NCBI GenBank assembly: GCA_035474135.1
Contig: DATINP010000033.1
Span: forward strand, 2,334-66,333
DNA from: Chloroflexia bacterium
GTDB taxonomy: Bacteria; Chloroflexota; Chloroflexia; QHBQ01; JADMIH01
Length of the DNA: 64,000 nucleotides
Reading direction: 5' to 3'
Positions 9,604 to 39,046 of the stretch are shown here, one piece after another. The notes beneath the pieces were generated by a model. It did not search any database and had not been told where the DNA came from. It was given only the letters and a program-made list of their open reading frames with translations. Positions within the stretch are counted from its first letter, which is position 1. Each line of letters begins with the position of its first letter. A program made the position numbers and the translations under genes.

Positions 9604-11181
9604 TCAGTAGGCCCCTTCACCTCGAACCCAGGTGGGAATCGTCTTTAGAATTATACGCACGTCCATGGCGGGCGACCAATTCTCAGCGTAGTAGAGATCG
9701 AGCTTCACCATATCCTCGAAGGATAGATCCGACCTGCCGCTCACCTGCCACAGTCCCGTAAGGCCAGGCGTCACGTCCAGCCGCTTAAGGTGCCAGTCGT
9801 CGTAGCGCTCTACCTCGTCGGGGGTAGGCGGGCGTGGCCCGACCAGGCTCATTTCGCCCTTCAGGATATTGAACAACTGGGGCAACTCGTCCAACGACGT
9901 GCGCCGGATAATCTTGCCAAAGGAAGTCCTGCGCGGATCGTCCCGTAACTTGAACACAGGCCCTTCACGCTCACTCTGATACATAAGTGCGGCTTTTCGC
10001 TCTTCGGCGTCCTCGTACATGGAGCGGAACTTGTAGCACACGAAGGGAGTACCGCCCTTGCCCACGCGCTTTTGCCTGAATAGCACCGGGCCGGGCGACG
10101 TTAGCCGCACAAATAGAGCAATCAACAGCATCGGTACGCACGCCACCACCAGCATCACCAAGGCCAGCGTCGTATCCATCATGCGCTTTACAAACAGGTT
10201 GAAGCCCCGCAAAGCTACATCTTTCACACCTATCAAGGGCACGCCGTTCAGTTCGTCGATGCGAACCTCGTTGAAACGCATCTCAAAGAGGTCAGGGACC
10301 AGCTTAAAGTCTACTCCGAACTCGCGACAGCTATCGATGATCTCCAGGATTTGCGTGTGATGCATTGCAGGGAGAGTCACTATCATTTCATGCAAGTCCT
10401 GGCTCTCCAGGATGCGTCGCACGTCATTGATACTACCTAGCTTGCGTAATTCTCCGTTTCGAGGTTTGATGGGCACTCGCCAGTCACGGCGAAGTGGGTC
10501 CGTCGGATCTGACACATAACCCGCCAACTGGTAACCCAACTCAGGCCGCTCTACTATATCCTTCATAATGCGCTGGCCCGCCAGTCCCGCGCCGACCACT
10601 ACGGTACGCCTGATATTGATCCCCCGCTGCCACAGCCACATACGCAGAGCGCGATAAGCCATGCGCTCCAGGATGAACACCACCAGGGTACAAGCGCCCA
10701 GGAAGATAAAGAGCATCCTGCTGGGCAGCACAGGGTTAAGCAGCAAAGCGCCCAACGTCAAAACAGCCACTCCTATAACAGACCCTATCGTGATAAGGCG
10801 CATATGGTCGAGCCACGACGCACCACGAGGCAGGGCATATAAGCCTCTAGCCTGGAAGGTCAGGAGAGTTATTCCCACAAAGGCCACGATGTACCAGGTA
10901 AATGCCGAAAGCGGGCGGAAAGATTCCGGCGCAACGTCACTTCCAAGCTCGGCGCCATATCGAAGCCAGTAAGCAAGCACAAATGCTGCCCCCAACAGGA
11001 GGCCATCGGCCAACAACCGTAGCGCGATAAGCGCATATCGTGTTCTTCGCGCTCTACGCATACGCTCCTCGCCGGTACCAACGAGCGTCAAGTGCCGCCC
11101 GCCTGCTAACGAAATTTTGTCTTCTGTCATTTTTGGGCCGGTATCCACGCCAGGAACCGGCTGGTATTCAGGAGCTTCCAA
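9604..11181 (-). CDS. polyprenyl-phosphate hexose-1-phosphate transferase (WbaP/PslA-like initiating sugar transferase)
   Basis: multi-TM N-terminus plus C-terminal bacterial sugar-transferase domain (MMDTTLALVMLVV...SPGPVLFRQKRVGKGG..F.CYKFRSM...LDELPQLFNILKGEMSLVGPRP). Confidence 0.85.
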   Translation of the reverse strand: MEAPEYQPVPGVDTGPKMTEDKISLAGGRHLTLVGTGEERMRRARRTRYALIALRLLADGLLLGAAFVLAYWLRYGAELGSDVAPESFRPLSAFTWYIVAFVGITLLTFQARGLYALPRGASWLDHMRLITIGSVIGVAVLTLGALLLNPVLPSRMLFIFLGACTLVVFILERMAYRALRMWLWQRGINIRRTVVVGAGLAGQRIMKDIVERPELGYQLAGYVSDPTDPLRRDWRVPIKPRNGELRKLGSINDVRRILESQDLHEMIVTLPAMHHTQILEIIDSCREFGVDFKLVPDLFEMRFNEVRIDELNGVPLIGVKDVALRGFNLFVKRMMDTTLALVMLVVACVPMLLIALFVRLTSPGPVLFRQKRVGKGGTPFVCYKFRSMYEDAEERKAALMYQSEREGPVFKLRDDPRRTSFGKIIRRTSLDELPQLFNILKGEMSLVGPRPPTPDEVERYDDWHLKRLDVTPGLTGLWQVSGRSDLSFEDMVKLDLYYAENWSPAMDVRIILKTIPTWVRGEGAY

Positions 11182-11314
11182 TCTTAAACCTGCATAGCCT
11201 TCGGCCTACGGCGTTACAACCGCATCTCCCCATAAACGTTAATAGTTTAGTGCCGCGTGCCGTCGAAATTTAGCTTCCAATAAGCCGATATATTATAGCA
11301 TACAAGCCTCACGT

Positions 11315-13594
11315 TTGCCCCATTTTAAATCTATGTGTATAATGTGGTTTAAGCAAAGATCGAGCCATCATAGGCGCCAAGCCCAATTCTTGCAAGGAAG
11401 CAAGTTTGGTGCCATTTTCTATGCTCCGCACTTTGCGTATGCCGGTATAGAGCCAGGAGGAACTAAATCGTTGTCAAAGCAGACCGCTTCCCGGAGCGGA
11501 TCGGGTAATCGTGGCGCGCGCCGCAAGGACACTCAGCCGGACGGAGTATCCCCAGCAGAACGCACCACAGAAGACATAAGTCAGGCAACCGGTGGTCACC
11601 CCACGGGCGGTGGCAAGCAGCACTCTACTTCTTCCTCATCCTCAACTCCTTTCCTGCAGAACTCCAACGGCTCAAATTCGAATCATGCCGCGATGTCGGC
11701 GGACGACCCGGCCCTATTGAGCGTGGGCGGTCTTCCTATTTCTCCCGTCTTACCTACCACAGCCGAATACATGCAGATGCGAACCTCGCGAAGGCGCAGG
11801 TGGTTGCGGTTCGGTATCTTTATAGTGTTGATCGCCCTGATCTCCGAGAGCATTTGGCTCTCACCCTTCAGCGACAGCGCGGCGAACGCGGTCCCTCGCC
11901 AGCCTGATCCTATCCCCCTCGCAGAAGTCCAACCGTATGGTGTGAACACTTTCCTCCACAAAGAGGTAGATAGCTGGAAGAAAGATAAAACCATGCAAAT
12001 GGCCAAGGACCTGGGCGTGGGGTGGATCAAGCAGCAGTTTCCCTGGGCCGAGATTCAATTCAGCCCAAGCTCTGATCCCAAGATTGGCTATTGGGATAAC
12101 AAGAACGGCCAGAGCGCCTGGACCAAGTACGACAATATCGTGAGCCTTGCCCAACAGTATGGCTTGCGAGTTGTAGCGCGTATTGATAGCGCGCCTCTCT
12201 GGTCACACCCCGGTAACCCCGACCCCAAGGCTCCGCCGGACGCCGCGCACATGGCCGATTTCGGCGACTTTGTCGGCACCTTCGTAAACCGCTACCGAGG
12301 CAGTATCGCCGCCATCCAGGTCTGGAACGAACCTAACCTCAAGGGCGAGTGGGCAACGGGCAATCCCGTCAATGCTGCTGAATACACAGACCTGCTCAAA
12401 GTAGCGTATACAGCCGCCAAAAACGTCAATCCCGATATCATAGTGCTGGCCGCACCCCTCGCCACAACCTTCGAGTCCCTTGGCTATGCCGGCAACTTGA
12501 ACGAACTGGACTACATGCAGGACATGTACGACGCAGGCGCAAAGCCCTACTTCGACGCTATGGCTGCCAATGCCTACGGCACCACATTCGCCCCCGAAGA
12601 CCCACCATCACCTGACAGACTGAACTTCCGCCGAGTCGAGCTTTTGCATGACATCATGGTCAAAAACGGTGACGCTAACAAAGCGGTCTGGTTCAACGAG
12701 TACGGCTGGAATAGCTCACCTGACGACATAACAAATGTGCCCTGGGGCCGCGTCACGACCGAACAACAGGGCGACTATACCGTGCGCGGCATCCAATACG
12801 CCCGCCAGAACTGGCCCTGGGCGGGAGTATTCACTATATGGTATCTGCGCCAGGTCGGAGATATTCCCCGCACCAACAGTGAATTCTATTTCGGCCTCGT
12901 TGATCCCGACTTCAGGACGAGCGTTGCTTACGACCGTATCCAGGCTGCAGCCACCGTCCTCGACAGCGTGGCCGGGCCAGGAGTGTGGGGTCCTCTCACG
13001 GCACCTGTCACATCTGACCCACGCTGGCGCATTCGACTGGGCGACGTCACAGGGGGCATGTATCTGGCGCCCTCGGCCCTCGATATTAGCCTGAGCGTAC
13101 CGTTCAAAGGGACAGACGTATCGGTGCAGCTGGTGCCCCTCCAGAGCGCGGGTGCGATCACCGCCACGCAAACCGTTGGTGCCCGCTATTATGTGACCAT
13201 AGACGGTTCGTCACGCTCCGTGATCTCTGACCTACCTCGCGACGCAAGCGGCAATGCTTATATAGACGTCCCCGCTGTGGGCGCACCTCTCAATCTCGTG
13301 GTTGCGAAAGGGATCAATGCTGAATTCCAGACCGGGCAGCACACCCTTGGGATAAGGGTCGCCGCCAACCCGGCCGGGGTACAGCCACCGCTTGGTGGCC
13401 GCACATATGCGCCCCTCGTGCAAAGCCCTAACCTGCCGGGCATTGGCCTAATCACGGTTGAAGCTCACCGCTCCTATATTCTATTCGCCCTCTTGACGCT
13501 GGCGCTTCTCCTGGCGGGTGCATATCTCGTCTGGCTATTACGTAAGCCGCCCCCACCCTTGCCTGGGCCTGATTCTGCGGCTCCCGGGCGCTGA
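11315..13594 (+). CDS. membrane-anchored clan GH-A (GH5/GH39-like, PslG-like) glycoside-hydrolase-domain protein; start uncertain (alternatives at 11693 and later)
   Basis: low-complexity N-terminus, one TM helix (FGIFIVLIALI), TIM-barrel hydrolase motifs IQVWNEPN (acid/base) and FNEYGW (nucleophile); second TM near the C-terminus; stop TGA overlaps the next ATG by 1 nt. Confidence 0.6.
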   Translation: MPHFKSMCIMWFKQRSSHHRRQAQFLQGSKFGAIFYAPHFAYAGIEPGGTKSLSKQTASRSGSGNRGARRKDTQPDGVSPAERTTEDISQATGGHPTGGGKQHSTSSSSSTPFLQNSNGSNSNHAAMSADDPALLSVGGLPISPVLPTTAEYMQMRTSRRRRWLRFGIFIVLIALISESIWLSPFSDSAANAVPRQPDPIPLAEVQPYGVNTFLHKEVDSWKKDKTMQMAKDLGVGWIKQQFPWAEIQFSPSSDPKIGYWDNKNGQSAWTKYDNIVSLAQQYGLRVVARIDSAPLWSHPGNPDPKAPPDAAHMADFGDFVGTFVNRYRGSIAAIQVWNEPNLKGEWATGNPVNAAEYTDLLKVAYTAAKNVNPDIIVLAAPLATTFESLGYAGNLNELDYMQDMYDAGAKPYFDAMAANAYGTTFAPEDPPSPDRLNFRRVELLHDIMVKNGDANKAVWFNEYGWNSSPDDITNVPWGRVTTEQQGDYTVRGIQYARQNWPWAGVFTIWYLRQVGDIPRTNSEFYFGLVDPDFRTSVAYDRIQAAATVLDSVAGPGVWGPLTAPVTSDPRWRIRLGDVTGGMYLAPSALDISLSVPFKGTDVSVQLVPLQSAGAITATQTVGARYYVTIDGSSRSVISDLPRDASGNAYIDVPAVGAPLNLVVAKGINAEFQTGQHTLGIRVAANPAGVQPPLGGRTYAPLVQSPNLPGIGLITVEAHRSYILFALLTLALLLAGAYLVWLLRKPPPPLPGPDSAAPGR

Positions 13595-16500
13595 TGCGTC
13601 TCGCTCGTCCTCTCGTCAATGATATTTCGGCCAACCCTATTGCCAGGGCCGTCCTTGCCTGCCTGCTGCTGGCCACCTGCGTGGGATCCCTCGTGGGTGT
13701 TTCGTACGTCGATAATTACGTAAACGCCGGGGTCGCCTGGGGCGGGCCTCCACCTGACATCCCCCTCGCTGACGTAGACCCCATGGGGGTGAATCTCTTC
13801 CTTGAGAAAGAGCCTGACCCCGCCAACGTGGTCAAATCGCTCGACATGGCGCAGGCGGGCGGCTTCAAATGGATCAGGCAAGACTTCGCCTGGAACGACA
13901 TCGAGATCAGCGCCAAGGGCAATTTCACTGACACCCGCAACCCCGGCAACCCCGTCAGTTCCTGGGCCAAGTACGACTTCATTGTGGACCAGGCAGTCGC
14001 CCACGGCATTACTATTATGGCCCGCCTCGATAGCCCGCCTGTGTGGGCGCGCAAGCCCGGCGACGACCTGGAGACCTACCACAAAGGCCCACCCGCCAAT
14101 AACAACGACTACGGAGACTTTGTGGCCGCCGTCGCTGCGCGCTACAAGGGCAAGATCAAGTACTACCAGATATGGAACGAGCCAAACCTGTTAGGCGAAT
14201 GGGGAGGCCACCCTGTCAACGCCGAACAATACGTGGCCCTGCTGAAGGTGGCACACGACCACATCAAGGCCGTTGACCCCGACGCCGTGATTGTGTCGGC
14301 GGCTCTCGCGCCCACCACCGAGGAGAGCGCGGCCAACCGCAGCGACATCCTGTTCCTCGAAGATATGTACCGCGAGGGAGCTAAGCCCTATTTTGACATT
14401 ATGTCAACTATGATCTATGGGCTGGGTCAGCCGCCGAGCGACCGCCGCACCGACTTCAAGCGGTTGTCTTTCTCGCGCCCTGTGCTCTTGCACGAGGTAA
14501 TGGAGCGTAACGGCGATGCTCTGAAGCCGATCTGGATCAGTGAGTACGCCTGGCTCAGCTACCCCGACGACCTGCAACAACGGCTCAATCTCTCGCCGGA
14601 CGAGTGGGCTGCGTTCCAGGCCAAGAACATCTGGGGCAAGAGCGTAGATGAGCAGACGCAAGGCCAGTATCTCGTAGAGGGCTACGAGCGCGCCCGCGAC
14701 GAATGGCCCTGGATGGGCGTGATGTTCGTGTGGCACCTGCGCAACCCCGACGGCGACCCTCTCGAACCGGCCACCTACTTCTCCATCCTCAACCAGGATT
14801 TCACCCCACGGCCCGCGTACCTCGCCCTCCAGGAATACAGCAAGGTGGTACCGTCAACGCCCACTCCTCAATCGAAGCCCCTGCTGAACGCGCTGGGCTT
14901 CCCCTTCCTGTACGCGCTGTTTGGCCTGTTGGCGCTGGCATCGTTCGCCTTCCTCGGCCTGTCGGTGGGCGAGTGGGCACGTGCAGCACTGAACCGACCG
15001 CGAGGCCGCTACAGCGAGCGCACGCGTGAGACCGCACGCAACGGCGCGGCAATCGTAGGCATGGGGGCATGCTACGCACTCTTCTACGTGGTGGGCAATC
15101 TGCCGGTGATAGTCGTCGCGCTGGCGGGCTACCTGGTAATAGCCTTCTTCAAGCCGCAGGCAGCGCTGGCCTTCGTCGCCTTCTCGATACCGTTCTTCTG
15201 GTATCCCAAAGTCTATGGAAGCCAGCACTTTCCCGTCGCCGAAACCCTCGTAGTGATGGCTTTCGCCGCGCTTATAGCCCGCCGCACAGTTGCGGCCTTA
15301 CTACCTCGCCTGTGGGCGCGCCTCGGGCAACCCGGCATGTCGCCAATAACATCACAAGCCGTCGTGGTCGACCTGCGCGCCACCAAGCCCATTCCCATCA
15401 ACGAACCAATTTCTGCGCCTGAGCAAGCTCCCGTCGCTGAGGCACCGGAAGCCGTCGACCTCAGCCCCGCCGAGTGGCCTGCACGTCCCAGGGAGTTGAT
15501 AGCCGAGCTTGCCAAACCGCTCCCTCTCAATGGGGAAAGAGAAGAGAGCAGGGCTGCCGCCCGACGCAGGAGGTCGGACGACGCGCTCCCACAGGCCAAT
15601 TACCTCGACCCACTCCTAGCACGCTTTCGAGCATGGAACAGGCAGGATGCGTTTGCCGCGCCTGCAGTTGCGCTTCTCCTGATCGGCGCGCTTTCCATGC
15701 TGACTCTCGCCAATCATGATTTCGCACCCGATAGCGCCCGTGCGTACCGTTGGATCGTAATCGAGCCGGTCCTCCTCTACTTCCTGCTGACCGACATAAT
15801 CCGTACGAAGCGCGGCCTGGTGCGCGTACTCGACTTCTTCGTGGGCGCAGGGGTGTTTGTGGCCTTTATCGGTTTGTGGCAGTTCGTAGGAGGCAGCAAC
15901 ACGCTGGCTGTAGAGGGCGTGAGCCGCGTCATGAGCGTCTACGAGCACCCCAACAATCTGGCTCTATACCTCGGTAGGGTGGCGCCATTCGCAGCCTGCA
16001 CAGCCCTTTTCCTACCCTGGGGGTGGCGCAAGCTGCTCTATGCGCTGGCCGCTCTCCCACTGTTCGCTACTTTCCTGCTCACTTACTCACGCGGCGCTTG
16101 GGTGGGCGCGGCAGTTGCTATCGTGCTGGCGGTGAGTATCGGCCTACGCTGGCCCCTCAGCAGAGAATCCGCAAAGCCCACTCGCGCCTTCCGCGCGTGG
16201 CTGACTGCGGTGGGCGTGGGCGCTGTGGCGGTCGCAATTGCGGTGGTCTTCTTATTCCCTAGCCTGCCCGACCGCTTCATCAACCCTGATAGCGGTGTGA
16301 AGCGGATCGACATCTGGGTCAGCGCCCTCAAGATGGGCCGGGACCACCCCTTCTTCGGCATCGGCCAGGACCAGTTCCTGAACCAGTACCAGCTAAAGAA
16401 CCTCGACGGCACCTACCACTACATCACGAAGGCCCAGGTCGCCGAGCTCTACACGTCTCACCCCCACAATATCGTGTTGGACTGGTGGCTCTCATTAGGT

Positions 16501-16788
16501 ATAATGGGTCTGCTCGTGCTTGTATGGCTCCTGTGGCGCTACTATCGGGAGGCCATAAACCTTGCGAGGTGGTGCGCGTCCAAGGCAGCCTCGGATGCGC
16601 TCCTGCGTGCGGTAGTAATTGGCCTGATCGCCGCCATGACCGACTTCCTGGTACACGGCCTGGTCGACAACTCGTACTTCCTGATGGACCTCGCACTGAT
16701 CTTCTGGCTGAGTTGCGGCGCTATACAGTTAGGTCGTATGCTTTATGTGGACGGGGGACGGCAGACGGCAGACGGCGGTAGGAATTGA
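13594..16788 (+). CDS. fusion protein: N-terminal clan GH-A hydrolase-like domain (paralog of the previous gene) plus C-terminal multi-TM O-antigen polymerase/ligase (Wzy_C-like) domain
   Basis: YQIWNEPN and WISEYAW catalytic-type motifs, then 10+ TM helices with LTYSRGAWVGAAVAIVL and RIDIWVSALKMGRDHPFFGIGQDQF (O-antigen-ligase family signatures); 1064 aa in one frame. Confidence 0.65.
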   Translation: MRLARPLVNDISANPIARAVLACLLLATCVGSLVGVSYVDNYVNAGVAWGGPPPDIPLADVDPMGVNLFLEKEPDPANVVKSLDMAQAGGFKWIRQDFAWNDIEISAKGNFTDTRNPGNPVSSWAKYDFIVDQAVAHGITIMARLDSPPVWARKPGDDLETYHKGPPANNNDYGDFVAAVAARYKGKIKYYQIWNEPNLLGEWGGHPVNAEQYVALLKVAHDHIKAVDPDAVIVSAALAPTTEESAANRSDILFLEDMYREGAKPYFDIMSTMIYGLGQPPSDRRTDFKRLSFSRPVLLHEVMERNGDALKPIWISEYAWLSYPDDLQQRLNLSPDEWAAFQAKNIWGKSVDEQTQGQYLVEGYERARDEWPWMGVMFVWHLRNPDGDPLEPATYFSILNQDFTPRPAYLALQEYSKVVPSTPTPQSKPLLNALGFPFLYALFGLLALASFAFLGLSVGEWARAALNRPRGRYSERTRETARNGAAIVGMGACYALFYVVGNLPVIVVALAGYLVIAFFKPQAALAFVAFSIPFFWYPKVYGSQHFPVAETLVVMAFAALIARRTVAALLPRLWARLGQPGMSPITSQAVVVDLRATKPIPINEPISAPEQAPVAEAPEAVDLSPAEWPARPRELIAELAKPLPLNGEREESRAAARRRRSDDALPQANYLDPLLARFRAWNRQDAFAAPAVALLLIGALSMLTLANHDFAPDSARAYRWIVIEPVLLYFLLTDIIRTKRGLVRVLDFFVGAGVFVAFIGLWQFVGGSNTLAVEGVSRVMSVYEHPNNLALYLGRVAPFAACTALFLPWGWRKLLYALAALPLFATFLLTYSRGAWVGAAVAIVLAVSIGLRWPLSRESAKPTRAFRAWLTAVGVGAVAVAIAVVFLFPSLPDRFINPDSGVKRIDIWVSALKMGRDHPFFGIGQDQFLNQYQLKNLDGTYHYITKAQVAELYTSHPHNIVLDWWLSLGIMGLLVLVWLLWRYYREAINLARWCASKAASDALLRAVVIGLIAAMTDFLVHGLVDNSYFLMDLALIFWLSCGAIQLGRMLYVDGGRQTADGGRN

Positions 16789-16940
16789 AACGCAAAGACG
16801 CAAAGGATTTAAGAGAGATCACGAAGATCACGAAGGGTAAGAGATCACGAAGAGTTAAGAGGGATTAAGGGTTTGACGCATGACGTATGACGCATAACGC
16901 GTTACCACAGTCGTCGGTCGTCAGTCGTCAGTCGTCAATC
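16757..16940. repeat. intercistronic tandem-oligomer element A: (GACGGCA)x3, (GATCACGAA)x3, (TGACGCA/TGACGTA)x3 with a TAACGCGTTA palindrome, (CAGTCGT/CGGTCGT)x4
   Basis: read directly; lies between the polymerase-fusion gene stop (16788) and the UXS gene start (16960); the first block encodes the protein tail DGGRQTADGGRN. Confidence 0.85.
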
Positions 16941-16959
16941 CGAAAAGGGGGCAGTTACT

Positions 16960-17922: not shown

Positions 17923-17945
17923 CGATCCGCAGGCCGCGCTTCTCC

Positions 17946-19415
17946 ATGCCGACCGCTACGGCCGGCCTGCCGCGTTGGGTATGGCCTCTGGGCATCGCGT
18001 TGGCGGCTCTAGCCGGCCTTGCACCTCCACTGGTGAGCCTGGGTGTACTGGTGGCCGGACTGGTTGTGTTCATCCTGCTCAAGAAGCCCTTGTGGGGAGC
18101 CTACGCCCTCGTGCTGAGCGTGCCCGTGCAGGATACTGTAAAACTGCCTGGCGGGATCAATGTCACGCAGGCGGCATTCGTGCTTGTGCTGGGCATCTGG
18201 TGGTTCTGGATGGCTCTGCGGAGCGACCGCCGCCTGCACATCACTCCCATCGGCGTGACTCTCCTGTTGTTCCTCACCTGCACCCTGCCCAGCCTGTGGG
18301 TGACCACCTCTCTACCTGACAGCCTCGCTGAGATCTCGCGCTGGATAGTGACGATCCTCTCCTACATCATCATCGTGAACTCGGTGCAGAGTCGACGCGA
18401 AGTAACGAGCCTTATTGTAGTAATGCTCACAGCGGGTATGTCCGAGGCTCTGCTAGGTCTTGTGCAGGCGTATGGCGGCCTCGGCCCGGCCAGTTTCAAC
18501 GTGGGCGGCCTGCTCACCCGAGCCTATGGAACGATCGGCGCGCCCAACTCGTTCGCGGGCTATATCAACATGAGCGTGCCTTTAGCATTCGCTCTCGCGG
18601 CCTACCACTGGGGCAAATGGGCCACCGCCCGCCGCGCCGCGCCATACCTTGACCGCCCCGACTTTATGTCATGGCAGCGTTTGCGCGTCCCGCTCCTCGT
18701 GTCCCTAGTGGCCTTTCTACTCTTCTGGACCGTGGTCACAAGCCTCTCGCGAGGAGCCTGGATCGGGCTGGCGTTTGGAGTGCTGGTGATGGTGTTGTCG
18801 CTCGGCCAGCGGGCCAAGGGCGCGATCACCGGACTGCTCGCTGCCCTGATCATACTCGCGGGCCTGACGGGGCTGAACGCGGTGCCACCCGTGATAGCGG
18901 ACCGCTTCACCCAGCTAACCAGCCAGTTGCAGATATTCGACCCGCGCGGCATCACCCCCAACCCCGACAACTACGCGCTAGTCGAGCGCATGGTGCACTG
19001 GATGGTGGCGGGCAACATGTTCCTCTCAAGCCCCATCGTGGGCGTAGGCATAGGCAACTTCAACACGCTGTTCAACAAGTTCGGCGTGCAGGGCTGGCCC
19101 TATTCTCGGGGCCATGCCCACAACTACTACCTAAATCTGCTTGCTGAAGTGGGCATCGTGGGCCTCACGGGCTACCTGATCATGATAATTACGACATTCG
19201 CGGTGGCCTACCGCGCCCTGCGCCGCGTGCGCGCACGCAAGGACCTGTATGGCGAAATGATAGTGATCGGTGCGCTGGGCGTGCTGGCCACCTTCGTCAC
19301 GCACAACTTCTTCGAGAACCTGCACGCCCTCAACATGGGCATCCAGTGGGGCGCGGCGCTTGCGCTATTCACTCTGGTGTGGCTCAGACCCGAACAGCCC
19401 GGGAAAGGAGCCTGA
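17946..19415 (+). CDS. O-antigen ligase/polymerase family membrane protein (second Wzy-like protein)
   Basis: about 12 TM helices; LSRGAWIGLAFGVLV and HWMVAGNMFLSSPIVGVGIGNF family motifs; ORF-track start 17892 would overlap UXS, internal ATG 17946 preferred. Confidence 0.65.
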   Translation: MPTATAGLPRWVWPLGIALAALAGLAPPLVSLGVLVAGLVVFILLKKPLWGAYALVLSVPVQDTVKLPGGINVTQAAFVLVLGIWWFWMALRSDRRLHITPIGVTLLLFLTCTLPSLWVTTSLPDSLAEISRWIVTILSYIIIVNSVQSRREVTSLIVVMLTAGMSEALLGLVQAYGGLGPASFNVGGLLTRAYGTIGAPNSFAGYINMSVPLAFALAAYHWGKWATARRAAPYLDRPDFMSWQRLRVPLLVSLVAFLLFWTVVTSLSRGAWIGLAFGVLVMVLSLGQRAKGAITGLLAALIILAGLTGLNAVPPVIADRFTQLTSQLQIFDPRGITPNPDNYALVERMVHWMVAGNMFLSSPIVGVGIGNFNTLFNKFGVQGWPYSRGHAHNYYLNLLAEVGIVGLTGYLIMIITTFAVAYRALRRVRARKDLYGEMIVIGALGVLATFVTHNFFENLHALNMGIQWGAALALFTLVWLRPEQPGKGA

Positions 19416-19416
19416 C

Positions 19417-20352
19417 TTGCGCTCACTCGTAACCGGCGCTGCCGGCTTTATCGGCTCCCATCTTTGCGAAACTCTGCTGGCGGCGGGACATGAGGTGGTG
19501 GGCCTCGACGCCTTCATCCCGTACTACCCGCGCGCGATCAAGGAAGCCAACCTGTCGGGCCCACGTGCCAATCCGCATTTCACTTTCTACGAACTTGACT
19601 TGCGAACCGGCGACCTGGCCCCTGCTCTTGAGGGTGTGGACGCCGTGTTCCACCTGGCGGCAATGGGTGGCCTGGTGCTTAGCTGGACGCACTTTGACCT
19701 CTACATGACCTGCAATATTCAGGCAACCGAGCGTCTGCTGGCGGCCATCCGGCAGACCGGGAAGGTGGACAAATTCATCTACGCCAGCACCTCCAGCATC
19801 TACGGCAGCGACGTGACAGGCCCCGAAACCGCCACACCCCACCCGGTGTCGCCTTATGGCATCACGAAGCTAGCGGGCGAGCATCTTGTGCAGGCTTACG
19901 ACCGCCAGTTCGGCGTCCCATCCACCATCCTGCGCTACTTCTCGGTGTACGGCCCGCGCCAGCGTCCCGACATGGGCTACTACATTTTCACGGACGCGAT
20001 CCTGCACGGCAAGCCGATTACAGTGTTCGGCGACGGCAACCAACTGCGCGGCAACACTTACGCCACCGACATAGCCCGCGCCACCCTCCTGGCCCACGAC
20101 AGGTTCGAGCGCGGCGCGATATACAACCTGGGCGGCTCGGAAGAAGTGAGCGCGAACCAGGTGATCGCCCTCCTGCAAGAGATCATCGGCAAGCGCACAG
20201 AGGTGCAATACGCCCCCGCCCGCCCCGGCGAGCAAAGCCGCACGCTGGCCGACACCACACTCGCCCAGCAACGCCTCGGCTTTGTGCCCCAGATGTCCCT
20301 GCGCTCGGGGTTGGAAGAGCAGGTGCGCTGGCAGACGGGTCTTAGCTCTTAG
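19417..20352 (+). CDS. NAD-dependent nucleotide-sugar epimerase/dehydratase
   Basis: TTG start 2 nt after the preceding stop; TGAAGFIGSHL Rossmann motif, YGITKLAGE (YxxxK); upstream part of the ORF-track ORF is the overlap with the previous gene. Confidence 0.8.
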   Translation: MRSLVTGAAGFIGSHLCETLLAAGHEVVGLDAFIPYYPRAIKEANLSGPRANPHFTFYELDLRTGDLAPALEGVDAVFHLAAMGGLVLSWTHFDLYMTCNIQATERLLAAIRQTGKVDKFIYASTSSIYGSDVTGPETATPHPVSPYGITKLAGEHLVQAYDRQFGVPSTILRYFSVYGPRQRPDMGYYIFTDAILHGKPITVFGDGNQLRGNTYATDIARATLLAHDRFERGAIYNLGGSEEVSANQVIALLQEIIGKRTEVQYAPARPGEQSRTLADTTLAQQRLGFVPQMSLRSGLEEQVRWQTGLSS

Positions 20353-21871
20353 ATCTACGACTCAGAATCGACCGGAAGGATGCAAGTTCCCCTGACGTGA
20401 ACGGACGCAGGAGGAGCAGCACCAGGCCGTATGCCAGTGCGAAGCCAATGCCTGCCCCCACGTAGAGCGCGAAGGCGGTGGTGTCTGACTTCCATTGCAC
20501 AAACAGCGACCAGCCCAGCCACATCAACGCGCCCGCAACCAGGCCCGCCACCAACGGCTTCCAGGCCAGCGCCACGACGGGCACAGGCCCGATAAAGCGT
20601 CCCACCCACACCAGGAACGGGCCGAGCAGCACCAGTTCGCTCAGCACCGTGGTCAGCGCGGCGCCGTTGATACCAATCAGCGGGATCAGCACCAGGTTCG
20701 CGATCACGTTGAAGGCGACCGTCAGCGCGAAAGCCCCCGTGATCAATCTCTGCTTGTCGAGCGCGATCAGCACGTACTGCGTGACCCCGTTCACAAAGCT
20801 AAAGGGTAGGAAGAAGATCAATATTTGCAGGGCGACAGGCGAGTCGGGCAGATAGATCTGCTTGCCCCCTGTCACTATCGTGATCAGCAGGGGCGCGAAC
20901 CACACGGTCATCACCACGATCAGCCCGGCAAGCACCAACAGCACCTTCAAAGCAAACCCGTACTCGTAGTTCAGGCGGGAGATATCGTCACGCGCGTGGC
21001 GGGCCATCCGTGGGAAGAGCGCCAGCGTCACTACGGGCGTGATCAGGAGCACAAAGTTGAGGTAGCTGTACGCCGCCTGGTACTTCTCCACGCCCAGGTC
21101 GCCCAGCACAGGCTGGATGATAAACTGGTCCACCCGAAAGAAAAGCCCCACCAACAGAGCGTTCAGCATCAGCGGCCAGCCCGTTTTCAGCAGGGCCACA
21201 GCCGCATCGCGACTTAGCCGCAGGCCTGCGACCGGCGCGCCCACCTCCGGGAAATCGCGCCGCAGGATACGTGCGAAATAGAGCGCGGTCGCAAGCGTGG
21301 ACAGCAACGAGGCCAGCGCCAACCCGATAATGCCCCACCCCAGCGCAAGCGCGCCCAGCCCCAACGCTACGTTCAGTACCGACGTGCCGATGCCCACCAG
21401 CGCGGGCACTGTCATGCGCTCGTAGGCGTTCAGCAAGGACGTAACCGTGCCGGAGAACGCGCCCGGCAGAAGGGACAGCGTGAGCACCACGACAGTCCAC
21501 GCTCCCGCCGTGCCCAGGTCGAACAGGCTAGTGTAAATCAGGATAAACAGACCCACAGGCACGAACAGCAAGAGGCTGATGAACAGACGCAAAGCCAGCG
21601 TCTGCCGGAAATCGTCCCGCACCGCCTCAGCCGACCCGCGCTCCTTGGCTACTTCGCGTGTTAGGAGTGTGCCAAGTCCCCACTCGGAGATCGTGCTTGT
21701 GTAAAGCAGAACGTAACCCGCCAGGAAGTAGGCCCCCAGTTCGCCGCCGCCGAGCGCGCGGTACAGCACCACCGCATACCCCAGCAGCAGCACCTTTGTG
21801 ACGATTTGTGCCATGAACGGGTTGAACGCATTTGACGCTACCCGCCGAGCCACTCCTACTTCGCTCTCCAT
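20342..21871 (-). CDS. polysaccharide biosynthesis protein / Wzx-type flippase (MOP superfamily)
   Basis: about 14 TM helices, length and hydropathy typical of Wzx/MurJ-like exporters; start ATG 21871 (TTG 21874 alternative). Confidence 0.7.
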   Translation of the reverse strand: MESEVGVARRVASNAFNPFMAQIVTKVLLLGYAVVLYRALGGGELGAYFLAGYVLLYTSTISEWGLGTLLTREVAKERGSAEAVRDDFRQTLALRLFISLLLFVPVGLFILIYTSLFDLGTAGAWTVVVLTLSLLPGAFSGTVTSLLNAYERMTVPALVGIGTSVLNVALGLGALALGWGIIGLALASLLSTLATALYFARILRRDFPEVGAPVAGLRLSRDAAVALLKTGWPLMLNALLVGLFFRVDQFIIQPVLGDLGVEKYQAAYSYLNFVLLITPVVTLALFPRMARHARDDISRLNYEYGFALKVLLVLAGLIVVMTVWFAPLLITIVTGGKQIYLPDSPVALQILIFFLPFSFVNGVTQYVLIALDKQRLITGAFALTVAFNVIANLVLIPLIGINGAALTTVLSELVLLGPFLVWVGRFIGPVPVVALAWKPLVAGLVAGALMWLGWSLFVQWKSDTTAFALYVGAGIGFALAYGLVLLLLRPFTSGELASFRSILSRRSKS

Positions 21872-21887
21872 CAAAACCTCTTTGTTT

Positions 21888-22009
21888 GGACCAGTGACCG
21901 GTGACCAGTGACCAGTGGCAGGTGACCGGTGACCAGTGCGTCATGCGTCATGCGTCATACGTCATACGTCATGCGTGACTTACGATCTAAGATCTACGAT
22001 CTAAGACTC
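21888..22009. repeat. intercistronic tandem-oligomer element B: (GTGACCA/GTGACCG)x7, (CGTCATG/CGTCATA)x5, (GATCTAA/GATCTAC)x4
   Basis: read directly; lies between the hypothetical-gene stop (22021) and the flippase start (21871). Confidence 0.85.
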
Positions 22010-22020
22010 TCGCCTTCGTC

Positions 22021-22536
22021 TTACCTGCCCAGCATTTGCAGCCCGATAATTAGCAGCACTGTCAGCATCATCAGCAGAATCGCGCCCATACCAGCGCAGC
22101 CCATAATAATTATGCTGTGCTGGGCTTTCTTTGCCCGCTGCGCACGCTCTTCGTCGAACACCACCTGCCCGGTCACTATGCCGTTATAGCGGTCGCCCAG
22201 CCCCCGCGCCTCCATGAGAGTCCGCATCGTGCCGAGATGCGCTTGCTCGTACTCGGCAAGGTCCTTCTTGGTACGCACGGGCGCGTTCCTGTTCGGCGTG
22301 TAGTTGGGCATCTCCTTCCACAGGTCGTACGCATCGGCGCCCAGGCTCTCTCCCTTGCCCGACAGCACGTCTTTGTACCGCTCCTGCCGGGCGGGGTCGC
22401 GACTGGTCAGCAGGAACATCACCGTTGCATCCCACTGCTCGCGCGAAGGCGGCCCCGCGCGCTTGTCGAGCGCAAAGGCGGCCCACTTGCTGTACAGTTT
22501 ATCGAATGGATCGCTGGTTTGTTCGTTGTCTGCCAT
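22021..22536 (-). CDS. hypothetical protein with C-terminal transmembrane anchor
   Basis: 171 aa, soluble N-terminal part and one C-terminal TM helix (IIIMGCAGMGAILLMMLTVLLIIGL); embedded in the glycan locus. Confidence 0.4.
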   Translation of the reverse strand: MADNEQTSDPFDKLYSKWAAFALDKRAGPPSREQWDATVMFLLTSRDPARQERYKDVLSGKGESLGADAYDLWKEMPNYTPNRNAPVRTKKDLAEYEQAHLGTMRTLMEARGLGDRYNGIVTGQVVFDEERAQRAKKAQHSIIIMGCAGMGAILLMMLTVLLIIGLQMLGR

Positions 22537-22612
22537 AGTGTCCTATTAACTTAATGACCTGAGTACGCCGAAAATGGACAGCTTTTCCATAGCCCATTCG
22601 GGCACATTTTCC

Positions 22613-22665
22613 GGACGACGCTTGACTTACGATCTAAGATCTACGACTCGTTTTACGACCGACGA
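22613..22665. repeat. intercistronic tandem-oligomer element C: GACGACG, (GATCTAA/GATCTAC)x3, CGACTCG/CGACCGA
   Basis: same 7-mer families as element B; overlaps the last codons of the GT4 gene (tail RKTSRRS). Confidence 0.7.
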
Positions 22666-23851
22666 ATCTCTCGTACACTTGCAGCACCTGTTCCGCAGCT
22701 GTCTCCCATGTAAACCGAGCGGCTCTTGCCCGACCCGCATCGCTCAGGGCGCGCCGCAGGTCTGCATCACCAAGCAAGCGTGAAATGCCGCCCGCGATAC
22801 TCTCTACCGAGCGCGCATCCACCACGAGAGCCGCTTCCCCCACTACCTCAGCCAGCGCATCATCCTCGGACACGAGTACGGGCGTGCCGCACGACATCGC
22901 CTCGGCGACCGGCAGGCCGAAGCCTTCGTAGAGGCTGGGGTAAGCGAACACCTCGGCCATCCTGTAAAGCAACGGCAGGTCGCGTTCGTCCACGTAGTCC
23001 ACGAACACCACGCGCGCTCCTGTGCTCGCACTCTCGCTGTTCACCCGCGTACCCGCCGCCAGTATAGGCTCGTACAACCAGCCCTTGCGTCCTGCCAGCA
23101 CCAGCGCGACTTTCTCATCGCCCGTCATGGCGCTGACAGCCTGCGCGTAGCCCTCAATCAGCCGAACCAGGTTCTTGCGCGGCTCAAGAGTACCGACATG
23201 CAGCACAAACCTCTCAGGCAGACCGAGTTCCTGCCGCAAGCGAGCACTTTGCGCTTGCTCGTCCACAATCTCTCCGCGCCCCGCTGCCCTGAACCGCTCG
23301 TCTACTCCATTATGCACTACGGTTACTTTCTCCGGGGCGACGCCCATCAAGCGCACAAGGTCACGCTTCGTCTGCTCTGACACGGCGATGATCCCGTCTG
23401 CCCGGCGTACTGCCCCGGGCACAGTCTTGCTCAGGAACCCTGCAAGGCCCGGCTCGGCGCACTCCGGTACGACCAGAAACGACAGGTCATGCACAGTAAT
23501 TATATCGGCACCGGTACGGTGAGGCGGCGACACGAAATCAGGCGAATGGAGCAGATCGCAGCGACCGGTGAACAGGTCTACAGGGATAGGCAGCCGCAGC
23601 CGTTGCCACACCGCAAACATCTGGCGTACCGAAAGCGGCACAGCCACTCCCCTGAAGTTGGGGTGCGCCTTCATAAGTGCCCGCGCTTGCTGCTCCTCAG
23701 GCGTGCCGCGCGGCAGACCTCTGTTCGCGTAAAAGAGAGAGTAGCGATTGTCAGCGTCGAGCCGCGCCAGCGCCGCCACCAGTGACCGCGTATAGCGGGC
23801 CACCCCCGCGCCGGGATATATGCCGGTTGTATAGTCCAGAGCAATATGCAT
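22634..23851 (-). CDS. glycosyltransferase family 4 (GT-B fold, group 1)
   Basis: EGFGLPVAEAMSCGTPVLVSE EX7E motif and GT4 architecture; 405 aa. Confidence 0.85.
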   Translation of the reverse strand: MHIALDYTTGIYPGAGVARYTRSLVAALARLDADNRYSLFYANRGLPRGTPEEQQARALMKAHPNFRGVAVPLSVRQMFAVWQRLRLPIPVDLFTGRCDLLHSPDFVSPPHRTGADIITVHDLSFLVVPECAEPGLAGFLSKTVPGAVRRADGIIAVSEQTKRDLVRLMGVAPEKVTVVHNGVDERFRAAGRGEIVDEQAQSARLRQELGLPERFVLHVGTLEPRKNLVRLIEGYAQAVSAMTGDEKVALVLAGRKGWLYEPILAAGTRVNSESASTGARVVFVDYVDERDLPLLYRMAEVFAYPSLYEGFGLPVAEAMSCGTPVLVSEDDALAEVVGEAALVVDARSVESIAGGISRLLGDADLRRALSDAGRARAARFTWETAAEQVLQVYERFVGRKTSRRS

Positions 23852-23854
23852 GGT

Positions 23855-23923
23855 GAACGACGACGGACGGCGGACGGCGGACGACGTACCACTCAGTCGT
23901 CTGTCGTCTGTCGTCCGTCGTCC
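23855..23923. repeat. intercistronic tandem-oligomer element D: (GACGACG/GACGGCG)x4 then (CAGTCGT/CTGTCGT/CCGTCGT)x5, an imperfect hairpin
   Basis: read directly; lies between the UPF0104-gene stop (23931) and the GT4 start (23851). Confidence 0.8.
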
Positions 23924-23930
23924 TTTCTCA

Positions 23931-25256
23931 CTACTTCCGTCTGCTTAACAGATACAGGATGATGCCGCCCGCGATCAGACTCCAATAGTTGATCAGCCTG
24001 TCGAGCAGAGCTATGGACACGGCCAGATTGTGGTTGTCAACGAACAGGGTCATCGCCAACACCACCGCACCTTCGACCAACCCCGCGCCACCCGGAGTGA
24101 GGGGCAGGGTCGTGAGCAAAGAACTTAGCAGGGCGATGAAGATCACAGCTGAGATGGTCACCTCGTGCGCGTCAAGCGAACGCGTCACGAAAAAGAGCCT
24201 GCCCGCCTCGCACAGCCAGATCAGAATAGTATATCCCAGCAACACGGGCAGGCTGCGGCGCTTGAAAGAGCGCAAAATGCCCTGCTGGAACGACGCGAAC
24301 TTGCTCTTGAACCGACTGGGTACAAACCTGAGCATCAGGTCACCGAAGAAACGCAGGCCCACCAATCCCACTATGAGGGCAATCACCATGAGCGCGCCCA
24401 CTATCATCACCAGCCCCAGGTTGAAATCGCTGCTATTGGCGTCGCTCGCCAGGCGGTTACTCACCAGTGTGAATGAAGCGGCCAGCAGGCCAAACAACAC
24501 CAACAGGTCGATCACCCTCTCGGCGAGGATCGTTCCTATAGTGCTGGAGAAAGACACACCCGAGTTGCGCTTGAGCAGGTAGCTTCGGTATGCATCGCCC
24601 AGTTTGGCGGGTACGATGCAGTTGACGAACCACGACAGATAGATGATCTCCACTAACCCGTTCACATTGGGTAGATGGACGTCGGGCTCTTTGTCCAGGC
24701 CCACATTCTGTATCAACTGCTTCCAGCGCAGGCCGCGCAACCAGAAAGCCGAGTAGTAAATTACGAAGCCCAGCAGAAGCATGAGCGGGTTCGCGGTGAG
24801 CATGGTCGCCCACGTATCGGCGGGGTTGATATCGAGGCGAGTGAAAATGAAGATCAGTATGCCGAGAGCAAGCACAAAGGAGATAATAGTGCGGAAGTTG
24901 AGCAGCTTGTGGCTCAACCAGTTGCGGTCTTCGGCTATATCTTCTACGGGCCTCGACAGGACAGGCGCCTCGGCCTCCATGGCAGCCTTTTCAGCTTCGG
25001 AAATAGGCGTTTCGCCGGTGTCAACATCGATCTCGGGCAGATCGATCAGGTCGTGCAGGCGGGGGGATGTGGTCGTGTAAGCTTTATCACCATCTTGGGG
25101 TTCCGACGAGCGAAACCTGGCATTTTGCAGCGACTCTTCAGCACCTGGCTCACCCTCTACATCCTGCTGGGTGCTGTCTGACTTTTGGTATCCATCACCG
25201 GTTGTGTGTGTACCGGCGCGCAACCTGGGATCCTCTATGACGGGCCTCCACTCCAA
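23931..25256 (-). CDS. flippase-like (lysyl-phosphatidylglycerol-synthase TM-region / UPF0104 family) membrane protein with disordered N-terminus
   Basis: about 100-aa acidic low-complexity N-terminus then 8 TM helices with the conserved K...GD...R block (AKLGDAYRSYLLKRN) of this family. Confidence 0.5.
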   Translation of the reverse strand: MEWRPVIEDPRLRAGTHTTGDGYQKSDSTQQDVEGEPGAEESLQNARFRSSEPQDGDKAYTTTSPRLHDLIDLPEIDVDTGETPISEAEKAAMEAEAPVLSRPVEDIAEDRNWLSHKLLNFRTIISFVLALGILIFIFTRLDINPADTWATMLTANPLMLLLGFVIYYSAFWLRGLRWKQLIQNVGLDKEPDVHLPNVNGLVEIIYLSWFVNCIVPAKLGDAYRSYLLKRNSGVSFSSTIGTILAERVIDLLVLFGLLAASFTLVSNRLASDANSSDFNLGLVMIVGALMVIALIVGLVGLRFFGDLMLRFVPSRFKSKFASFQQGILRSFKRRSLPVLLGYTILIWLCEAGRLFFVTRSLDAHEVTISAVIFIALLSSLLTTLPLTPGGAGLVEGAVVLAMTLFVDNHNLAVSIALLDRLINYWSLIAGGIILYLLSRRK

Positions 25257-34025: not shown

Positions 34026-36479
<2,454 letters not shown>

Positions 36480-36480
36480 C

Positions 36481-36554
36481 ATAGCGCAACTCGGCTAAGA
36501 AGTAAGGTGTAGTCAGTTGCGACTACACCTTACTTCTTAGCCGAGTTGCGCTAT
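36481..36554. repeat. perfect palindrome: two 34-bp arms separated by a 6-nt loop (AGTTGC), immediately after the clpB stop
   Basis: ATAGCGCAACTCGGCTAAGAAGTAAGGTGTAGTC ... GACTACACCTTACTTCTTAGCCGAGTTGCGCTAT; reverse-complement checked by hand. Confidence 0.9.
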
Positions 36555-36715
36555 AGGGGTTGACAAATAGGGCATAAGCTGGTAAATAATAACTTAAAAC
36601 AAGTCTGCCGAATCTAACGATGGCTTTCGGTTGTCGATCATTAGCTTCATGCATTCTCTATGAGCAGATTGTTTGGAACTTAGAGAGGATCAGTTTGCTG
36701 GGAAGGAGCTTCGTG

Positions 36716-38046: not shown

Positions 38047-38055
38047 GAGAAAACC

Positions 38056-38787: not shown

Positions 38788-38951
38788 ATCCTAAAACGAC
38801 AGGACACAGTATAGCGCGCCCATCGTTGAATAATGAGCAATGTGACCAAGCCTTAGCAGGGCTACTGTGGCTATATTCTTCGAACTCTTGCCTGCTGCAC
38901 CCACTACAACGTATCAAGCGTGGGGCCGTTCACCACGATGCACTCAGATTT

Positions 38952-39046
38952 AGCAAGCGTCTGCTGAAAGGCAACGTGAAGACGGGCGACACGATCACCG
39001 CAGGCTATACTCCCGAAGAAGGCACAACCTTCGCCGTAGAGAAGAC
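38952..39046 (+). repeat. 95-bp duplicate of the clpB 3' coding end (direct repeat of 36360-36454, 94/95 identical)
   Basis: hand alignment of the two sequences; creates the chimeric ORF 38826-39077 ending ...KRLLKGNVKTGDTITAGYTPEEGTTFAVEKT. Confidence 0.9.

Follow-up and report, generated by a model that had tools for sequence, protein, structure and literature searches.

A locus for the assembly of a cell-envelope glycan was delimited at positions 9604-25256 of a 64,000-nucleotide stretch of DNA from a Chloroflexia bacterium (contig DATINP010000033.1; the whole stretch is called the window here). The locus is a chromosomal and vertically inherited cluster, and the comparison with relatives indicates that its evolutionarily stable unit is a core operon, built around a fusion gene in which a PslG/GH39-like glycoside hydrolase (GH) is joined to a WaaL-like membrane enzyme of the Wzy_C family. 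In our reading, which we give a probability of about 0.55, the locus would make a lipid-linked glycan containing xylose (Xyl) and/or galacturonic acid (GalA), which is flipped, then polymerised and/or ligated outside by a WaaL-like pair and trimmed by the hydrolases.

Ten long open reading frames (ORFs) were found in the locus, with the coordinates listed in the initial annotation of this DNA, and they form three transcriptional blocks: 9604-11181 (minus strand, one gene), 11315-20352 (plus strand, five genes) and 20342-25256 (minus strand, four genes). Their families were assigned by Pfam, NCBIfam and PDB searches, and the rest of the window was covered by running Pfam on 28 more ORFs (a 123-aa Rieske ORF and 27 with a length of 150 aa or more). 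All eleven gene assignments of the initial annotation were borne out, far above chance, and the hidden Markov model searches recovered Bac_transf, two Wzy_C, Polysacc_synt, glycosyltransferase family 4 (GT4) and the hydrolases. Three of the assignments could be refined: the hydrolases are indeed of clan GH-A, being PslG/GH39-like rather than generic GH5; the second short-chain dehydrogenase/reductase (SDR) is UDP-glucuronate 4-epimerase-like; and both Wzy_C proteins are predicted to have a WaaL-like fold.

The fusion gene (13594-16788, plus strand) encodes 1064 aa, assigned by Pfam to clan GH-A in the N-terminal part and to Wzy_C in the C-terminal part, and its product was 100% identical to the NCBI entry HST03446.1, 'O-antigen ligase family protein [Chloroflexia bacterium]', which lies on a 70.7-kb contig of a metagenome-assembled genome (MAG). 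The AlphaFold model of the fusion had a pLDDT of 86.4 and a pTM of 0.74. Its hydrolase domain (aa ~40-425, 13711-14868) is of the (beta/alpha)8 kind; in profile searches against PDB it matched PslG at 7e-18 and GH39 xylosidases at ~1e-10, and with Foldseek PslG (5bx9) was the top match (E 4e-13), followed by GH39 xylosidases. E196 (acid/base, in WNEPNL) and E317 (nucleophile) were invariant in 32 fusion homologues with identity down to 34% (alignment A1), and the WNEPNL of the window hydrolase aligned with the same motif in PslG.

A second, membrane-tethered hydrolase of the PslG/GH39-like kind, GH_A (11471-13594, plus strand; 707 aa), is encoded directly upstream and has a transmembrane (TM) segment at both ends. 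It is a paralogue of the hydrolase domain of the fusion (41% identity, E 2e-82) with WNEPNL and NEYGW motifs of its own; a weak match to Pfam Cellulase/GH5 (23.8 bits) was obtained, along with PDB matches to GH39 (5jvk, 5e-7) and PslG (1e-5). The likely start of GH_A is the TTG at 11471, which is preceded by AGGAGGA and is the start in the gene calls of relatives. The longest ORF runs from 11315, 52 codons before this start, and the apparent protein conservation of the MCIMWFKQ codons upstream of GH_A is that of a conserved -10 promoter box read as codons. As both catalytic Glu residues are invariant, it is very probable that both GH domains work as retaining glycosidases. The Pfam GH39 model PF01229, which is carried by a few homologues, gave no match to the window hydrolases, whose scores with PF00150 (GH5) were no more than borderline (22.6-23.8 bits); we class the hydrolases as PslG/GH39-like members of clan GH-A rather than as established GH39 enzymes. 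In the fusion, the N-terminal anchor is preceded by basic residues, and a basic loop follows the first TM helix past the GH domain. Because of the N-terminal TM segment and the positive-inside rule, the GH domains are predicted to lie outside the membrane.

At least 591 stretches of species-representative genomes contained a relative of the hydrolase domain. For most loci retrieved from Thermomicrobiales and Anaerolineae, the protein that best matched the hydrolases carried a C-terminal TM anchor only (compare GH_A). Homologues of the hydrolase domain with 42-46% identity were also observed in MAGs of a Sphingomonadaceae (locus L028), an Acidobacteriota (L036) and a Solirubrobacteraceae (L073), that of L028 being accompanied by an epimerase, a phosphoglycosyl transferase (PGT) and a GT4; these homologues outside Chloroflexota reflect either horizontal transfer of a PslG-like gene together with exopolysaccharide (EPS) loci or mis-binned contigs.

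The C-terminal part of the fusion, a polytopic membrane domain (aa ~475-1060, 15016-16773), and a second Wzy_C protein of 501 aa, Wzy2 (17910-19415, plus strand), scored 81.5 and 66.8 bits with Pfam Wzy_C, both above the gathering cutoff of 31.7 bits. Wzy2 starts at the ATG at 17910, as in NCBI HST03448.1, with the longest ORF running from 17892. Wzy2 as a whole is a paralogue of the last 590 residues of the fusion (hhalign probability 99.9 over 392 columns), and the model of the fusion shows a disordered insert at aa 580-665. In profile searches against PDB, the fusion domain matched WaaL (7tpg) at 8e-13 and an oligosaccharyltransferase (9rmk) at 1e-5, and Wzy2 matched WaaL at 2e-16, WaaL being the top membrane protein for both profiles. 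With Foldseek, WaaL 7tpg was likewise the closest structure for both Wzy_C parts, with E 2e-7 for the fusion and E 6e-9 (TM-score 0.68) for Wzy2, the model of which had a pLDDT of 83.5 and for which FtsW was the next match.

Residues of the WaaL active site are retained in the pair. The WaaL-like part of the fusion has invariant R904, W908, G922-G924-D926-F928 and P957-H958 (A1, 32 sequences); H956 is nearly invariant, HPHN is kept and D1025 is conserved. In the Wzy2 family, S280-R281-G282, R360, H402 and H404-N405 are invariant (A2, 28 sequences). The SRGAW, R..W and GHAHN of Wzy2 aligned to the RGA, R..W and EHAHN of WaaL, and the motifs SRGAW, R..W and HxHN were conserved in both families. 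In WaaL and PglS, binding of the pyrophosphate has been proposed for the active-site arginines, and the role of catalytic base for the histidine (PMC12800693). Judged by models and motifs, the fold is WaaL-like in both Wzy_C proteins and the HxHN motif is of the WaaL type. The initial annotation had counted two O-antigen-ligase-family proteins and taken them as atypical; two are present, and rather than an oddity they are a conserved paralogous pair, both WaaL-like. Some Wzy2 homologues bear the JGI label 'putative inorganic carbon transporter'. An identity of the Wzy_C genes as IctB bicarbonate transporters was rejected, as TIGR00947 reached 93 and 71 bits where 366 are required.

Two SDR enzymes for nucleotide sugars are encoded beside the pair. 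The product of the first gene (16960-17922, plus strand) matched human UXS1 in PDB over its full length with E 5e-102, the next enzyme class reaching 4e-43, so the call of a UDP-glucuronate decarboxylase (UDP-xylose synthase, UXS) in the initial annotation was well founded, and no NCBIfam equivalog cutoff was reached. The second gene (19417-20352, plus strand; TTG start with AAGGAG upstream, longest ORF from 19270) encodes a nucleotide-sugar 4-epimerase that matched 6zl6 at 4e-76 and MoeE5 at 2e-61 in PDB, with GalE and RmlB types behind. We take 6zl6 to be the UDP-glucuronate (UDP-GlcA) 4-epimerase of Bacillus cereus and MoeE5 to be a UDP-GlcA 4-epimerase as well, and from these matches the second SDR looks like a UDP-glucuronate 4-epimerase. 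Both enzymes would then draw on UDP-GlcA and supply UDP-Xyl and UDP-GalA.

The remaining members of the core are encoded on the minus strand. The product of 22634-23851 is a GT4 (GT-B, retaining) cytoplasmic glycosyltransferase (GT) with 103 bits for Glycos_transf_1 and 60 bits for Glyco_transf_4; its best PDB matches were MshA-, SPS- and PimA-type GT4 enzymes (2.5e-19 at best), it reached no NCBIfam cutoff and it has no TM segment. Next to it, 23931-25256 encodes a flippase-like membrane protein of the UPF0104/LPG_synthase_TM family (PF03706, 157 bits; TIGR00374, 123.9 bits with a cutoff of 43.2). That the locus has a single GT besides the initiating transferase, as noticed at first, was confirmed, and Pfam found no further GT among the 28 other window ORFs.

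In order to follow these genes in relatives, the window proteins were compared by tblastn with 86 retrieved loci (designated by L numbers). In L001, L004, L007, L008 and L009, the proteins of which are 50-80% identical, the same genes were found in the same order and orientation, and the synteny reaches the left-flank Rieske gene in L004, L008 and L009; the locus genes remain linked, not scattered. The only difference from the gene order of the window was an insertion that is absent in the window, namely a gene for an extracytoplasmic function (ECF) sigma factor with a DUF5667 gene between the epimerase and Wzx (L001 17137-19612, L004 17462-20215 and the corresponding stretch of L009); the DUF5667 protein is possibly an anti-sigma factor.

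Further out, hydrolase and Wzy_C domains lay on one strand as in the fusion in 29 of the 86 loci. Of the 28 loci that could be evaluated, 12 had UXS directly after the fusion, and Wzy2 came after UXS in every one of them. UPF0104 and GT4 were nearby in four of the seven loci with enough sequence (L001, L005, L023 and L085), the retrieved sequence of L004 and L009 stopping short of the UPF0104/GT4 positions. A tight core operon on a single strand was obtained in L005, L023 (Candidatus Chlorohelix) and L085 (a complete Chloroflexota chromosome), in the order (GH), GH::Wzy_C, UXS, Wzy_C-2, (epimerase), UPF0104, GT4, with UPF0104 directly adjoining GT4. The immediate neighbours that were identified in the latter two are housekeeping genes, a Lon protease and an oxidoreductase in L085 and an aminotransferase in L023. 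The fusion gene is solitary in Chloroflexus, Roseiflexus, Oscillochloris and Chloroploca. Neither a GH-Wzy/WaaL fusion nor the core operon was found described in the open-access literature, which likewise held nothing specific on O-antigen-ligase genes of Chloroflexi; public databases already contain the proteins, with generic names.

Besides the core, the window locus encodes an initiating polyprenyl-phosphate hexose-1-phosphate transferase, a large PGT (9604-11181, minus strand). It matched Bac_transf with 226.9 bits, CoA_binding_3 with 67.7 bits and TIGR03025 with 430 bits (cutoff 296), and fell slightly short of the NCBIfam WcaJ equivalog (401 bits, cutoff 411); the protein has six hydrophobic segments, including N-terminal TM segments. 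A Wzx-type flippase of the MOP superfamily (20342-21874, minus strand; 12 hydrophobic segments) matched Polysacc_synt (PF01943) with 74.8 bits, the cutoff being 28.2, and Polysacc_synt_3 and MatE in Pfam as well; its gene is convergent with that of the epimerase and overlaps it by 11 nt (20342-20352). Between Wzx and GT4, 22021-22536 (minus strand) encodes a clade-restricted, tail-anchored protein of 171 aa with one C-terminal TM segment, which matched no Pfam or NCBIfam family. Only 30 homologues of it were obtained, all apparently of one clade and unnamed or 'hypothetical protein', the single one with an organism name being from a Chloroflexia MAG; the position of the gene between Wzx and GT4 is kept in L001, L004 and L009. 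PGT and Wzx are linked to the locus in close relatives only. Since the core occurs without PGT and Wzx in distant Chloroflexota, these two genes are additions of the lineage of the window, and so is the 171-aa protein.

In that lineage, PGT appears to be tied to the hydrolase operon by its promoter. The gap between the two divergent units contains promoter-like blocks (11291-11343). On the plus strand, a site TTGCCC-17-TATAAT at 11315-11343 has 10 of 12 matches, the best in the locus, and a second block, GTATTATAACATA, is TGTTATAAT when read on the minus strand. The TTGCC-17-TATAAT and GTATTATAACATA blocks were invariant or nearly so in six loci (the window, L001, L004, L007, L008 and L009), and the remaining intergenic DNA could not be aligned across them. 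We infer that the two blocks are a conserved divergent promoter pair. A riboswitch or leader RNA upstream of GH_A was considered and dropped, the DNA alignment showing the conserved blocks to be promoter-like hexamers and the Shine-Dalgarno and start region; no Rfam match was obtained at gathering thresholds in the whole window, and none at E<=1 over 11150-11850.

While the gene families, the conserved catalytic residues and the pattern of linkage are shown, the mechanism is inferred from known systems. A PGT combined with Wzx and a Wzy_C enzyme typifies the en-bloc assembly of lipid-linked glycans. UXS would turn UDP-GlcA, made elsewhere in the genome, into UDP-Xyl, and the 4-epimerase would turn it into UDP-GalA. 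The PGT would start the glycan on polyprenyl phosphate, cytoplasmic GTs (the GT4 and/or GTs encoded elsewhere) would extend it, and Wzx would move it to the outer face of the membrane. There, the WaaL-like pair would take the glycan linked to polyprenyl pyrophosphate (polyprenyl-PP) as donor, one enzyme acting as a Wzy-type polymerase and the other as an en-bloc ligase to an acceptor; the likeliest acceptor would be a membrane glycolipid produced by the GT4 and flipped by UPF0104, much as TacL joins teichoic acid to a glycolipid and WaaL joins O-antigen to lipid A-core. The PslG/GH39-like domains may trim, release or proofread the polymer, as proposed for PslG, and the product would be a lipoglycan or a wall-associated polysaccharide containing Xyl and/or GalA.

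Several observations weigh against this reading. The division of labour between polymerase and ligase is not reflected in the pair: PDB profiles, hhalign and fold search all led to WaaL for both paralogues, neither is closer to a classical Wzy than the other, and sequence and fold do not separate the roles. Only one GT besides the PGT is available for two supplied nucleotide sugars, so that GTs must be encoded elsewhere, or the GT4 is the GT of the repeat unit rather than an anchor synthase. Among the ten locus ORFs and the 28 further window ORFs, no Wzz or other polysaccharide co-polymerase (PCP; GNVR-type), LytR-CpsA-Psr (LCP) protein or UDP-glucose dehydrogenase was found; the missing Wzz/PCP may sit elsewhere in the genome. 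About half of the fusion genes are solitary, without an adjacent UXS or Wzy2. Finally, the core operons of L005, L023 and L085 have no PGT or Wzx within 10 kb, and the Wzx step is therefore no intrinsic part of the module. The description of the locus as Wzx/Wzy-dependent in the initial annotation is fair for the window, where a lipid-linked, Wzx/Wzy-style surface glycan is meant, but Wzx dependence is a feature of the lineage and not of the module.

The last of these observations supports a route without Wzx, in which the GT4 would put Xyl (or GalA) on a membrane or polyprenyl lipid, UPF0104 would flip it, the WaaL-like pair would build or transfer the glycan and the GH39-like domains would trim it, with PGT and Wzx belonging to a separate, recruited pathway. 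In L023 and L085, the core is a tight operon amid housekeeping genes; it comprises one invariably present nucleotide-sugar enzyme (UXS), a single GT, a single flippase-like protein and the WaaL-like pair, and its GH domain is nearest to PslG and the GH39 beta-xylosidases. However, WaaL-type enzymes are known to use polyprenyl-PP donors, which need an initiator of the PGT or PNPT type (its gene may lie elsewhere), no GT4 enzyme is known to produce sugars linked to polyprenyl phosphate, and in the clade of the window PGT and the GH operon share a conserved, putative divergent promoter region, which speaks for a functional tie. We regard this route as unlikely.

A bolder and equally doubtful idea stays alive because PGT and Wzx are absent from the distant core operons. 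The core could be a self-contained, Chloroflexota-specific machine for a xylose-based lipoglycan or wall polysaccharide without classical Wzx, Wzy and Wzz, and the fused retaining GH could be a transglycosylase or chain-length setter coupled to the ligase or polymerase, not a simple failsafe hydrolase. If true, this would be the first described assembly route for the peptidoglycan-polysaccharide complex of the Chloroflexota, which lack lipopolysaccharide (LPS).

The same low probability is assigned to protein O-glycosylation, with one or both Wzy_C proteins being O-oligosaccharyltransferases of the PglL/PglS type that pass the flipped glycan to S-layer proteins or proteins with S-layer homology (SLH) domains, and not to a lipid or polymer. 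The Wzy_C family does include O-oligosaccharyltransferases that share the active site of WaaL (PMC12800693), and the fusion profile matched an oligosaccharyltransferase in PDB, 9rmk; but WaaL was by far the better match for both proteins, and the profile of Wzy2 gave no oligosaccharyltransferase match at E<1. In addition, the window has an SLH-domain ORF at 37042-38046, and in L005 (3210-7988) a 795-aa SLH-domain protein with a third PslG-like GH domain (30% identity to that of the fusion) is encoded upstream of the core, together with a methyltransferase and a GT87-family membrane glycosyltransferase. This neighbourhood hints at a link of the module to S-layer or secondary cell-wall polymers. 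Yet the module is not accompanied by any one target protein throughout, and O-glycosylation would leave no role for the conserved GT4-UPF0104 pair or for the fused hydrolase.

The pair itself gives rise to a further explanation, namely that two unrelated systems adjoin here: one for a Wzx/Wzy exopolysaccharide, and a separate GT4-UPF0104 glycolipid module like gpgSF/hexSDF, whose only task is to modify membrane lipids. In gpgSDF and hexSDF, a GT4 and a UPF0104 protein make, and are predicted to flip, a membrane glycolipid (PMC12713373); such pairs act alone in Pseudomonas and Clostridioides, and in the window the pair occupies the distal end of the locus and the strand opposite to that of the GH operon. 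In L005, L023 and L085, however, short gaps are all that separates the pair from Wzy2 or the epimerase, which directly precedes it on the same strand. A deacetylase partner is also missing, and the NCBIfam equivalogs for the synthase and the flippase of glucosaminyl-phosphatidylglycerol (GlcN-PG) were far under their cutoffs (NF053787, 47 bits against 480; NF053789, 19 against 320). Two separate systems are thus quite improbable.

The genomic setting of the locus is ordinary. Its GC content was 0.597 against 0.569 in the rest of the window (57.6% G+C for the whole window), and its GC3 and tetranucleotide profile did not stand out from the rest of the window. On the left it is flanked by genes for polynucleotide phosphorylase (PNPase), a P450 and a Rieske protein, and on the right by IMP dehydrogenase (IMPDH), PAP2 and others; as these are housekeeping or unrelated genes, the boundaries of the locus are right. 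No tRNA genes were found in the window by a tRNA scan. The initial annotation had called the locus a shuffled island, which does not agree with the composition or with the gene order kept in relatives up to the flanking Rieske gene, and a horizontally acquired island was rejected on these grounds. That the locus is nevertheless such an island, as the repeat arrays between gene blocks might suggest, or that its Wzy_C genes are IctB-type inorganic-carbon transporters, as the JGI names and the weak TIGR00947 matches might suggest, is hardly credible given the window-like GC, GC3 and tetranucleotide usage, the Rieske synteny in L004, L008 and L009, the presence of heptamer arrays in many other gaps of the window and its relatives, and IctB scores far below the cutoff.

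The locus belongs to an abundant phylum: Chloroflexota lack LPS, the architecture of their envelope is debated, and their wall polysaccharides were chemically described decades ago. No assembly genes assigned to these polysaccharides were found in the open-access literature, and the core operon is a concrete, phylum-conserved candidate for the assembly of a Chloroflexota envelope polysaccharide. The GH::WaaL-like fusion can be seen as a 'Rosetta stone', suggesting that PslG-like hydrolases physically touch the transferase of the lipid-linked glycan, and it is relevant to the question of what PslG-type enzymes do in Wzx/Wzy pathways. Should the locus be merely another EPS cluster, the gain would be a corrected annotation (GH39-like and not GH5; UXS and UDP-GlcA 4-epimerase; WaaL-like proteins and not bicarbonate transporters).

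Other features of the window were noted as well. Tandem arrays of heptamers, described in the initial annotation, were found by Tandem Repeats Finder in three gaps of the locus: between the fusion and UXS (16757-16937; units GACGGCA, TGACGCA and CAGTCGT and a 9/17-nt array), between Wzx and the gene for the 171-aa protein (21889-22006; GACCAGT, TGCGTCA and GATCTAA) and, as two arrays that are roughly reverse-complementary, between GT4 and UPF0104 (23859-23922; GACGGCG and GTCGTCT). Arrays of 7-nt units (3-9 copies) occupy many intergenic gaps of the window and of related genomes, also outside the locus, further ones being located at 49221-49252 and 50733-50851 of the window, at 7527-7617, 17739-17804 and 23035-23156 of L001 and at 13429-23157 of L009. 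In orthologous gaps, the sequence of the unit changes across genomes and the period of 7 is retained. One unit, TGACGCA, turns up in one gap of the window and, as its complement TGCGTCA, in another, and several arrays are adjacent, roughly reverse-complement pairs (GACGGCG/GTCGTCT in the window, GTTGTCA/GACAACT in L001), which could form long hairpins.

Outside the locus, the PNPase ORF (4094-6502) ends in a Gly-rich tandem-repeat tail (6283-6438) with 42/81-nt repeats and GGCGGT-type units encoding GGGGYNRGGPGG-like repeats; such a Gly-rich, low-complexity C-terminal extension is unusual for PNPase. A PAP2-family phosphatase (27473-28552, 359 aa, with TM segments) is encoded 2.2 kb past the locus, after IMPDH, and may serve in carrier recycling as a polyprenyl-pyrophosphate phosphatase. 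Two stretches, 36001-39000 and 60001-64000, had a GC content of 0.48-0.51 and a tetranucleotide correlation of 0.48-0.53, against ~0.8 elsewhere. The first of them holds the SLH-domain ORF and an unidentified 243-aa ORF, and the second a 753-aa ORF without a Pfam match and with internal 18-nt repeats (61867-62151); these low-GC stretches may be foreign or fast-evolving genes for surface proteins.

Among known systems, the locus can first be compared with Psl of Pseudomonas aeruginosa, in which PslA is the PGT, PslK the Wzx, PslJ the Wzy and PslG the hydrolase. The window locus likewise encodes a large Bac_transf PGT, a MOP flippase, a polytopic Wzy_C-family enzyme, a GT4 and a tethered PslG-like hydrolase of clan GH-A. 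It differs in having no gene for a PCP (PslE/Wzz/Wzc) or an outer membrane polysaccharide export (OPX) protein and in having one GT; two WaaL-like paralogues replace the one Wzy, and the hydrolase is duplicated, with one copy fused to Wzy_C. Moreover, PGT and Wzx lie outside the conserved core, and the host phylum has no LPS and no classical outer membrane. Chloroflexi have been reported to lack LPS and to have a peptidoglycan-polysaccharide complex (PMC3368417). PslG is a membrane-tethered endoglycosidase which is encoded in, and needed by, a Wzx/Wzy pathway and which has been proposed to clear misdirected polymer (PMC13434223). With PslG and the GH39 beta-xylosidases such as XynB1, the window domains share the (beta/alpha)8 fold, WNEPNL and the nucleophile Glu, and these enzymes were the top PDB matches; at ~20% identity, the window domains differ from them in being membrane-tethered or fused to a 12-TM enzyme.

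For the two Wzy_C proteins, WaaL of Cupriavidus metallidurans (7TPG/7TPJ) was the best match by profile and fold, with the RGA, R..W and HxHN motifs aligned. The identity is ~18-19%, one window copy has an N-terminal GH39-like ectodomain and an insert of 85 disordered residues, and the acceptor of WaaL, lipid A-core, should not exist in Chloroflexia, where the acceptor must be another one. The gpgSDF genes of P. aeruginosa (GlcN-PG) and hexSDF of C. difficile resemble the locus in that a cytoplasmic GT4 adjoins a UPF0104 flippase-like protein; here there is no deacetylase, and the pair is embedded in an operon with the WaaL-like, UXS and hydrolase genes. In the monoderm Streptococcus pneumoniae, the Wzy_C protein TacL ligates a teichoic acid chain linked to undecaprenyl pyrophosphate (Und-PP) to a glycolipid by a WaaL-like mechanism (PMC5727136). 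The likeness of the window locus to this synthesis of type IV lipoteichoic acid (LTA) is one of description, namely a monoderm-type setting, a Wzy_C protein and an Und-PP-linked polymer that is flipped by Wzx and passed to a glycolipid. The window locus differs in having no teichoic-acid, choline or LCP genes, and the GT4 and UPF0104 are putative anchor genes; the TacL model nonetheless provides a precedent for one polymerase, one ligase and a glycolipid anchor.

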